A DNA stretch of 386 nt from NCBI RefSeq assembly GCF_003334355.1, contig NZ_QOWP01000110.1; one strand, given 5' to 3'. The notes under the pieces are model-generated. The model was not told the origin of the DNA and searched no databases. It was given only the letters and a program-made list of their open reading frames with translations. Made by a program: the position numbers and the translations under genes. Of the stretch, positions 1 to 386 are shown piece by piece. This stretch comes from Escherichia coli. Its GTDB lineage: Bacteria; Pseudomonadota; Gammaproteobacteria; Enterobacterales; Enterobacteriaceae. Each line of letters opens with the position of its first letter. Positions within the stretch are counted from its first letter, which is position 1.

Positions 1-35
1 ATGCTTCCATCGGAAACGATGATCTGGCAGCCTGA
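1..35 (+). CDS. 3' end (last 10 codons plus stop) of an IS3-family orfB transposase, IS629-like; partial, 5' end outside the window
   Basis: Frame with codons starting at position 3 reads A-S-I-G-N-D-D-L-A-A-stop (TGA 33-35); positions 1-2 complete a codon begun outside the window. The stop lies about 40 bp inside the element terminus, as expected for orfB of IS3-family elements. Only 10 codons are visible, so the call depends on the adjacent inverted repeat and on recollection of the IS629 transposase C-terminus. Confidence 0.45.
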   Translation, partial: ASIGNDDLAA

Positions 36-52
36 GTTCACAGATAAAACAC

Positions 53-77
53 TCTCCAGGAAACCCGGGGCGGTTCA
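53..77 (+). repeat. Terminal inverted repeat (right end) of the IS629-like element, about 25 bp; inner boundary approximate
   Basis: + strand 53-77 is tctccaggaaacccggggcggttca; its complement TGAACCGCCCCGGGTTTCCTGGAGA starts with the IS3-family TG dinucleotide and contains the CCCGGG palindrome at 64-69. The 25-bp length is from memory of IS629-type repeats; the other end is not in the window for comparison. Confidence 0.45.
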
Positions 78-216
78 CTTTTCGCCAGTCCTGTAATTCC
101 ATACTTAGATGTCCGTCTATATCAGATGGGCGTCTAAGTTACCAATTCTCGTCTGATGGCTACATACGGCGGTCAGTTTACGCTTACGTGTCAAGAGGGA
201 TTTCTCAGCCCCTCAC
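78..216. other. 139-bp spacer between the two IS ends; no recognisable gene or RNA; probably a remnant of the original insertion target
   Basis: Bounded by the IS629-like terminus (…GGTTCA, 77) and the IS2-like terminus (TGGATTT…, 217). No ORF with a credible start and ribosome-binding site lies wholly inside it. It contains the near-repeat AGATGTCCGTCTA / AGATGGGCGTCTA and a small hairpin at 195-214. Confidence 0.5.
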
Positions 217-257
217 TGGATTTCCCCCTATATTTCCAGACACCTGTTATCACTTAA
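217..257 (-). repeat. IS2-like right inverted repeat (IRR), 41 bp; the outer terminus is at position 217
   Basis: Terminal TGG at 217-219 gives …CCA-3' on the transposase-sense strand, the IS3-family CA-3' end. The repeat contains the orfB stop codon at 228-230. Two positions, 224 and 243, differ from the canonical IRR as recalled. Confidence 0.7.
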
Positions 258-386
258 CCCATTACTGGCCCGCTGCCGTAGATATTCCCGTGGCGAGCGA
301 TAACCCAGTGCACTATGCGGATGCCATTCGTTATAATGCTCGAACGCCTCTGCAAGGTTCTTTGCTGCCGTTAACCCGTCTGGTTT
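228..386 (-). CDS. insD: C-terminal 52 codons plus stop of the IS2 orfB transposase (DDE/integrase-core protein); partial, N-terminus outside the window
   Basis: - strand translation from 386 down to 228: [52 protein letters not shown], with stop TAG (+ strand cta at 228-230). The …[18 protein letters not shown]… segment is the conserved C-terminal motif of IS3-family integrase-core transposases and matches the IS2 InsD C-terminus as I recall it, except Ser for Cys at the codon on + 264-266. Confidence 0.8.

Follow-up and report, generated by a model that had tools for sequence, protein, structure and literature searches.

The right-hand part of this 386-nucleotide stretch of Escherichia coli DNA (the window) resembles the end of the insertion sequence IS2 but departs from the IS2 of K-12 at several bases, two of them in the terminal inverted repeat on which transposition depends. 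The question that it raises is therefore whether the copy is a functional isoform or a decaying element, both of which had been put forward in the original prediction, and whether its altered right inverted repeat (IRR) is likely to affect the activity of the element.

To establish the identity of the element, positions 217–386 were compared by megablast with 5,426 complete E. coli genomes. This returned 18,830 places, spread over 4,358 genomes and annotated as IS3-family or IS2 transposase, so that this part of the window can be read with confidence from its sequence as the right end of an IS2 copy on the minus strand, made up of the 41-bp IRR and the last 52 codons of orfB. The IRR (217–257) has the length, the IS2 sequence and the 5'-TG/CA-3' terminus by which an IS2 end is recognised; its length and domain structure were assigned following published work (PMC3299598). 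The IS2 of K-12 (IS3 family, IS2 group; InsC/InsD, OrfAB) shares with the window both this TG...CA terminus and an orfB that ends inside the IRR (here with a stop codon at 228–230 in plus-strand coordinates), and the two are 96.5% identical over 170 bp. Those 170 bp are all that is visible of the element. The orfB frame is still open where the window ends at 386, and the left inverted repeat (IRL; 42 bp in IS2), the target duplication, orfA, the frameshift site and most of orfB lie beyond it, which leaves room for a truncation or an inactivating change deeper in this copy. The features of the window are collected in Table 1.

Table 1. Features of the 386-nucleotide window, in plus-strand coordinates.
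Feature	Position	Strand	Remarks
IS1203/IS629-type IS3-family element, right end	1–77	+	Assigned by identity to the annotated PSS-12 locus
IS66-family element, left end	78–187	−	110 bp remaining; assigned by identity to L006 and L005
Chromosomal DNA of a genomic island, separating the IS66-family and IS2 ends	188–216		29 bp; identical to PSS-12 L001:4188-4216
IS2 right inverted repeat (IRR)	217–257	−	41 bp; 39/41 bases as in the K-12 IS2 IRR
IRR outer terminus	217–219		TGG, the CA-3' of the minus strand; the plus strand reads TGGATTT...
224 G>C	224		IRR position 8, first base of the G/C tract (8–12), in the 11-bp cleavage domain
IS2 orfB (InsD/OrfAB C-terminus)	228–386	−	Last 52 codons and stop; 51/52 residues as in K-12
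243 T>C	243		IRR position 27, protein-binding domain; common lineage marker
Ser codon AGT (K-12: Cys, TGT)	264–266	−	C-terminal tail, 12 residues from the end

We then aligned window positions 200–386 with the IS2 copy of E. coli K-12 MG1655 (L003:1984-2170) using MAFFT. This revealed exactly six differences within 217–386: 224 G>C, 243 T>C, 266 A>T, 267 A>G, 279 C>T and 309 C>T. In the original prediction the listed changes were C for G and C for T in the repeat (224 and 243), Ser for Cys at the codon on plus-strand 264–266 and at least two silent changes; the alignment and the translations of both sequences bear out each of these, and the IS2 reference assumed there proved right in every detail. 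When the minus strand is translated, the Cys>Ser exchange is the sole amino-acid change in the 52 visible codons. It falls at residue 296 of a 307-residue translated stretch (the 301-aa OrfB plus 6 upstream codons), outside both the rve (130–233) and the rve_3 (222–287) domains. Reading the codons directly, the changes at 267 (GCT>GCC, Ala), 279 (CTG>CTA, Leu) and 309 (GCG>GCA, Ala) are silent, as is that at 243 (AGA>AGG, Arg), giving four synonymous changes and one non-synonymous change in the visible orfB, the tail of which is intact. The remaining substitution, 224 G>C, is located between the orfB stop and the tip of the element.

Five of these six substitutions proved to be markers of a sister lineage of IS2, and only the one at IRR position 8 is rare. 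Thus, the copy in ECCNB12-2 carries the window states at 243, 266, 267, 279 and 309, and both it and the tcmA_3 copy match the window at 169 of 170 bases, having 243C, Ser and the silent-site haplotype in common with it. The non-K-12 copies (ECCNB12-2, PSS-12, SC516, tcmA_3 and many IncF-type plasmids), which PGAP annotates as 'IS3 family transposase', differ from the window in having G, rather than C, at IRR position 8. The serine is found in all four non-K-12 copies examined, and 243C together with the Ser/Ala codon pair (266/267) in every full-length one.

To estimate how common these states are, we made use of the fact that a megablast seed is an exact word of 28 bases. With a 46-bp query (217–262) any such word spans position 243, so all of the 7,748 places found, in 2,768 of the 5,426 complete genomes (with as many as 39 in a single genome), carry 243C. 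Set against 10,779 places with a K-12-type right end in 3,134 complete genomes, this means that, in complete E. coli genomes, roughly 40% of IS2 right ends have the base of the window type at 243. A 45-bp query (246–290), for which any 28-base word spans 266/267, sets a lower bound for the Ser haplotype of 1,094 places and 705 genomes, with a maximum of 21 places per genome. Over the whole 170 bp, 514 E. coli records and 274 plasmid records are at least 99% identical to the window, the plasmids coming mainly from Escherichia, Klebsiella, Salmonella and Shigella.

Full-length members of the lineage share 94.7–96.1% identity with K-12 IS2 and have at most one indel (PSS-12, 95.7%; SY033, 95.6%; UPEC26-1, 94.7%; ECCNB12-2, which has an internal deletion, about 96%). 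By an ISfinder-style criterion, elements above about 95% nucleotide identity to a reference are regarded as isoforms of it, a threshold at which the lineage is a borderline case. The reading frames of orfA (136 aa) and orfB are intact in the full-length members; orfA differs from that of K-12 by 17 synonymous and 0 non-synonymous changes, and the dN/dS of orfB against K-12 is 0.13–0.16, with lineage-wide values well below 1, as under purifying selection. The overlap of orfA and orfB with its programmed −1 frameshift (A6G) is present and annotated, PGAP records an intact programmed-frameshift transposase, and the PSS-12 OrfB, in which rve and rve_3 domains are found, scores 704 bits against NF006918 'IS2 transposase TnpB' (NCBIfam; cutoff 597). 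In addition, 5-bp target duplications flank the PSS-12 (TCTCC) and UPEC26-1 (CAACA) copies, as 5-bp duplications do the K-12 copy and a copy on a viral contig that is described below (L013). Full-length members of the lineage evidently look functional and mobile, and the window copy is best placed as a member of this widespread, apparently functional non-K-12 sister lineage or isoform. Of the two possibilities originally envisaged, then, the isoform is favoured by the abundance of the lineage, its intact reading frames and its target duplications. The decaying copy is not: the visible end of the reading frame is intact, its changes are four synonymous to one non-synonymous, and dN/dS in the lineage is well below 1. 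It had also been foreseen that the differences might turn out to be those of a common IS2 isoform, which is what we find for five of the six changes, 224 being the exception. A literature search for named 'iso-IS2' variants gave only unrelated Bacillus papers.

As a side observation, the ECCNB12-2 copy (L002:2501-3589), the closest to the window's 170 bp, is itself decayed. It has lost about 229 bp internally (K-12 IS2 coordinates about 901–1130 counted from the IRR tip), and a matching right end is thus no guarantee of an intact element.

The polarity of the changes can be read from more distant relatives. C at the position equivalent to 243 and the Ser codon are both present in ISEc36, in a Klebsiella element of 88% identity and in an E. 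fergusonii element of 86% identity. Since these outgroups share C243 and Ser, it is the K-12 reference that is derived at 243 and 266/267, and the states in the window are ancestral. This reverses the earlier description of the window copy as 'divergent'. ISEc36 (IS3 family, IS2 group) also resembles the window in the architecture of its end (TGGATTGGCCCCTATATTTCC...), but it is a distinct named element with only 88.8% identity over the 170 bp. There is thus a reference bias, as the 'canonical' IS2 of K-12 carries derived states at two sites, IRR position 27 and the Cys/Ser codon; and because some 40% of right ends are of the other type, divergence from the reference is no sign of decay here. 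In these respects the window holds an already known insertion sequence of a common lineage and is biologically ordinary.

The substitution at 224 is different, being the only rare change of the six. No exact match to a window-type IRR with C at position 8 (8C) was found among the 7,748 places with 243C in complete E. coli genomes, nor to a K-12-type IRR with 8C among the 10,779 others, and 8C is therefore absent from about 18,500 IS2 right ends when the two are combined. There was likewise no exact match to an 8C IRR in the plasmids of PLSDB, and the 26-bp tip of the IRR with 8C had 0 matches in 100,044 species-representative genomes or in JGI metagenomes. G at this position is kept in ISEc36, in two Klebsiella relatives (88% and 75%) and in most relatives.

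The same 26-mer did have one match among viral contigs (IMG/VR), in an IS2 copy (L013:11173-12503; IMGVR_UViG_2534681701_000013) that is 99.7% identical to the K-12 element. This copy has only four differences from K-12, which include G>C at position 8 of both the IRL and the IRR, together with A32G in the IRL; its reading frames are intact and it is flanked by a 5-bp duplication, ATTCT. While it shares G>C at IRR position 8 with the window, it is otherwise K-12-type (T at 27, Cys), has the additional IRL changes and occupies a different insertion site, within a prophage-like contig. A second assembly has the IRL with 8C and 32G at the same site (L014:14654), a third has it at a different insertion site (L015:10535), and an IRL with 8C is also seen in truncated IS2 relics on complete plasmids. 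The position-8 G>C variant type is thus real, and its occurrence at two insertion sites suggests that at least the IRL form has moved. The symmetry of 8C at the two L013 ends could be explained by a hotspot of mutation or by selection that favours matching ends. Some of the IRL-8C relics lie, truncated, inside another IS2 fragment in a head-to-body nested arrangement (L016:2409-3092 in p124_C and L017:2409-3350 in ET846 unnamed2, both E. coli plasmids), and this arrangement is kept across several plasmids of 28–108 kb.

What might C at position 8 do to the end? The cleavage domain of the IRR comprises its outer 11 bp, which OrfAB protects strongly and in a sequence-specific manner (Lewis et al. 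2012, PMC3299598); within the repeat, positions 8–12 make up a G/C tract, the inner part, position 27 included, is the protein-binding domain, and the promoter at the minicircle junction needs a 17-bp spacer, which is provided via a 1-bp junction spacer (PMC3299598). On the scheme that emerges from published IS2 work, the OrfAB transposase would bind the inner protein-binding domain of the IRR, the 3'-OH would be joined beside the IRL to give a figure-of-eight and then a minicircle, and the abutted ends of the minicircle would form the promoter Pjunc that drives the integration step.

When we modelled this junction, the best sigma-70 match consisted of TGGAAA (IRR 22–17) and TAGACT (IRL 1–6) separated by 17 bp. 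We infer these two hexamers to be those of Pjunc, an assignment of our own that is constrained by the published statement on the 17-bp promoter spacer and the 1-bp junction spacer (PMC3299598). In the model, hexamers and spacing are the same in the window variant, with position 8 falling in the spacer and position 27 upstream of the −35. The suggestion that changes in the repeat could alter the circle-junction promoter consequently finds no support as far as hexamers and spacing are concerned, and was rejected for these on the basis of the modelled junction. The 224 G>C change also leaves the IRR at 41 bp and its G/C content the same. Since the length of the repeat and the modelled Pjunc hexamers and spacing are kept, 224 G>C most likely leaves donor-end cleavage unaffected or impairs it mildly, and the effect of this rare terminal-repeat polymorphism is probably small. 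No single-base mutant of IRR position 8 was found in the literature. From the absence of 8C among some 18,500 right ends it could also be that copies with 8C fail to propagate, in which case the change may not be neutral. Should it change donor-end activity, it would offer a naturally occurring allele with which to dissect how IS2 ends are recognised.

As to its origin, 224 G>C may have arisen by slippage-type (dislocation) misincorporation at the edge of a homopolymer. Dislocation mutagenesis is an established mechanism, and it would account for a G>C change beside a run of C that is seen at both ends of IS2 and in two lineages, and for a further variant of that same run. In the latter, represented by UPEC 26-1 (L004:2001-2047), an element of the window's lineage carries an extra C in the G/C tract of the IRR (TGGATTTGCCCCCTA), making a repeat of 42 bp. 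The exact 47-mer occurs in 14 complete records, all but two of which hold just one place of the 243C type. Lengthening the IRR by 1 bp is reported to produce an end that acts only as recipient (PMC3299598), the modelled Pjunc spacer would become 18 bp, and such copies may be naturally immobilised. The UPEC26-1 copy is the one flanked by the CAACA duplication.

Overall, then, the sequence is very probably that of a common-lineage IS2 right end with five normal markers and one rare point variant, a reading that has to be weighed against several others. The C at 224 might simply be a sequencing or assembly error in a plain 243C/Ser member of the lineage. With G restored here, the 170 bp would match the ECCNB12-2 copy in full, and probably most of the 514 records as well; numerous records from E. 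coli and from plasmids are a single mismatch away (99.4%), the base adjoins a homopolymer (GCCCC > CCCCC), and an exact match occurs in none of the large collections searched. Against this, the change is a substitution, whereas homopolymer errors are typically indels, the same G>C is present at position 8 of both L013 ends, and 8C in the IRL recurs in independent assemblies that include complete plasmids, which indicates that the variant type exists in nature. Taking these points together, we consider an error unlikely. The base could alternatively be genuine and damaging, 8C disrupting sequence-specific contacts with the catalytic centre such that the IRR fails as a donor end and the copy is immobilised or decaying. 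Mutations in the protected cleavage domain of the IRR do abolish minicircle formation (PMC3299598), ISEc36 and the Klebsiella relatives keep G8, the 8C IRR is absent from the right ends counted above and was not seen in more than one place, and the window element lies among broken IS copies. The published lethal mutations, however, are multi-base changes in the IRR A element (1–7) or in IRL 8–12, and none of them is a single G>C that keeps both G/C content and length. Moreover, L013 combines 8C at both ends with an intact set of ORFs and a 5-bp duplication, the IRL with 8C and 32G is found at two sites, which makes at least the IRL change compatible with movement, and the visible orfB tail of the window copy is intact. 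An immobilised copy therefore seems improbable.

Two further readings take the L013 type of end as their starting point. In one, 8C would be a recurrent, transposition-compatible allele of IS2 ends that tends to occupy both ends and marks a rare mobile sub-variant in which changed contacts of the cleavage domain would alter activity or donor/recipient behaviour. We regard this as distinctly unlikely; if true, the window copy would be a second, independent example of 8C, in the other IS2 lineage. In the other, the IRR tip (217 to about 242) would have been gained by gene conversion from an IS2 copy with an 8C end, for example of the L013 type, and would not be a fresh mutation. 8C does sit in a K-12-type element there, whereas the other markers of the window come from the other lineage, and the two lineages commonly occur together in one E. 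coli genome (in PSS-12, within 3 kb of each other). Such a tract would, however, be defined by the single marker at 224, which recurrent mutation explains equally well, and gene conversion appears very unlikely.

Turning to the surroundings of this variant IS2 end, three IS elements, an IS1203-type, an IS66-family and the IS2 element, abut one another inside 386 bp. The orfB of the IS1203/IS629-type element stops at 33–35 and its terminus, ...GGTTCA, finishes at 77; in PSS-12, the CDS annotated as 'IS3-like element IS1203 family transposase' ends at the corresponding locus (L001:4035). The terminus of the IS66-family element, GTAAGCG..., reads down from 187, with the tnpA start codon at 102–100, and what remains of it is 100% identical to L006:3001-3110 and 94.6% identical to L005:3001-3111, which has an IS66-like tnpA annotation. 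The IS1203-type copy interrupts this tnpA after 8 codons. A 379-bp stretch around the short segment of island DNA between the IS66-family and IS2 ends is present in 2,970 of the 5,426 complete E. coli genomes, and in CFT073 it sits among IS elements and inovirus-Gp2/Hha-like island genes. A promoter formed by an outward −35 of IS2 and the flank was considered and rejected: the flank hexamer at 17-bp spacing is TGAGGG, and the IS66 tnpA downstream is, moreover, the gene cut by the IS1203-type copy.

The insertion site itself can be placed by comparison with PSS-12. Window positions 1–217 are 100% identical to L001:4001-4217 of that strain, which from L001:4217 onward reads TCACCGGCTCAG and has its own IS2 copy 350 bp further on. 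The 216/217 junction is absent from complete E. coli genomes, and a 25-mer across flank and IS2 had 0 matches in metagenome contigs, species-representative genomes or viral contigs. The junction in the window arose in one of two ways, through an IS2 insertion specific to the strain or through a deletion of about 350 bp next to IS2, and the 5-bp duplicate expected at the other end of the window copy would be CTCAC.
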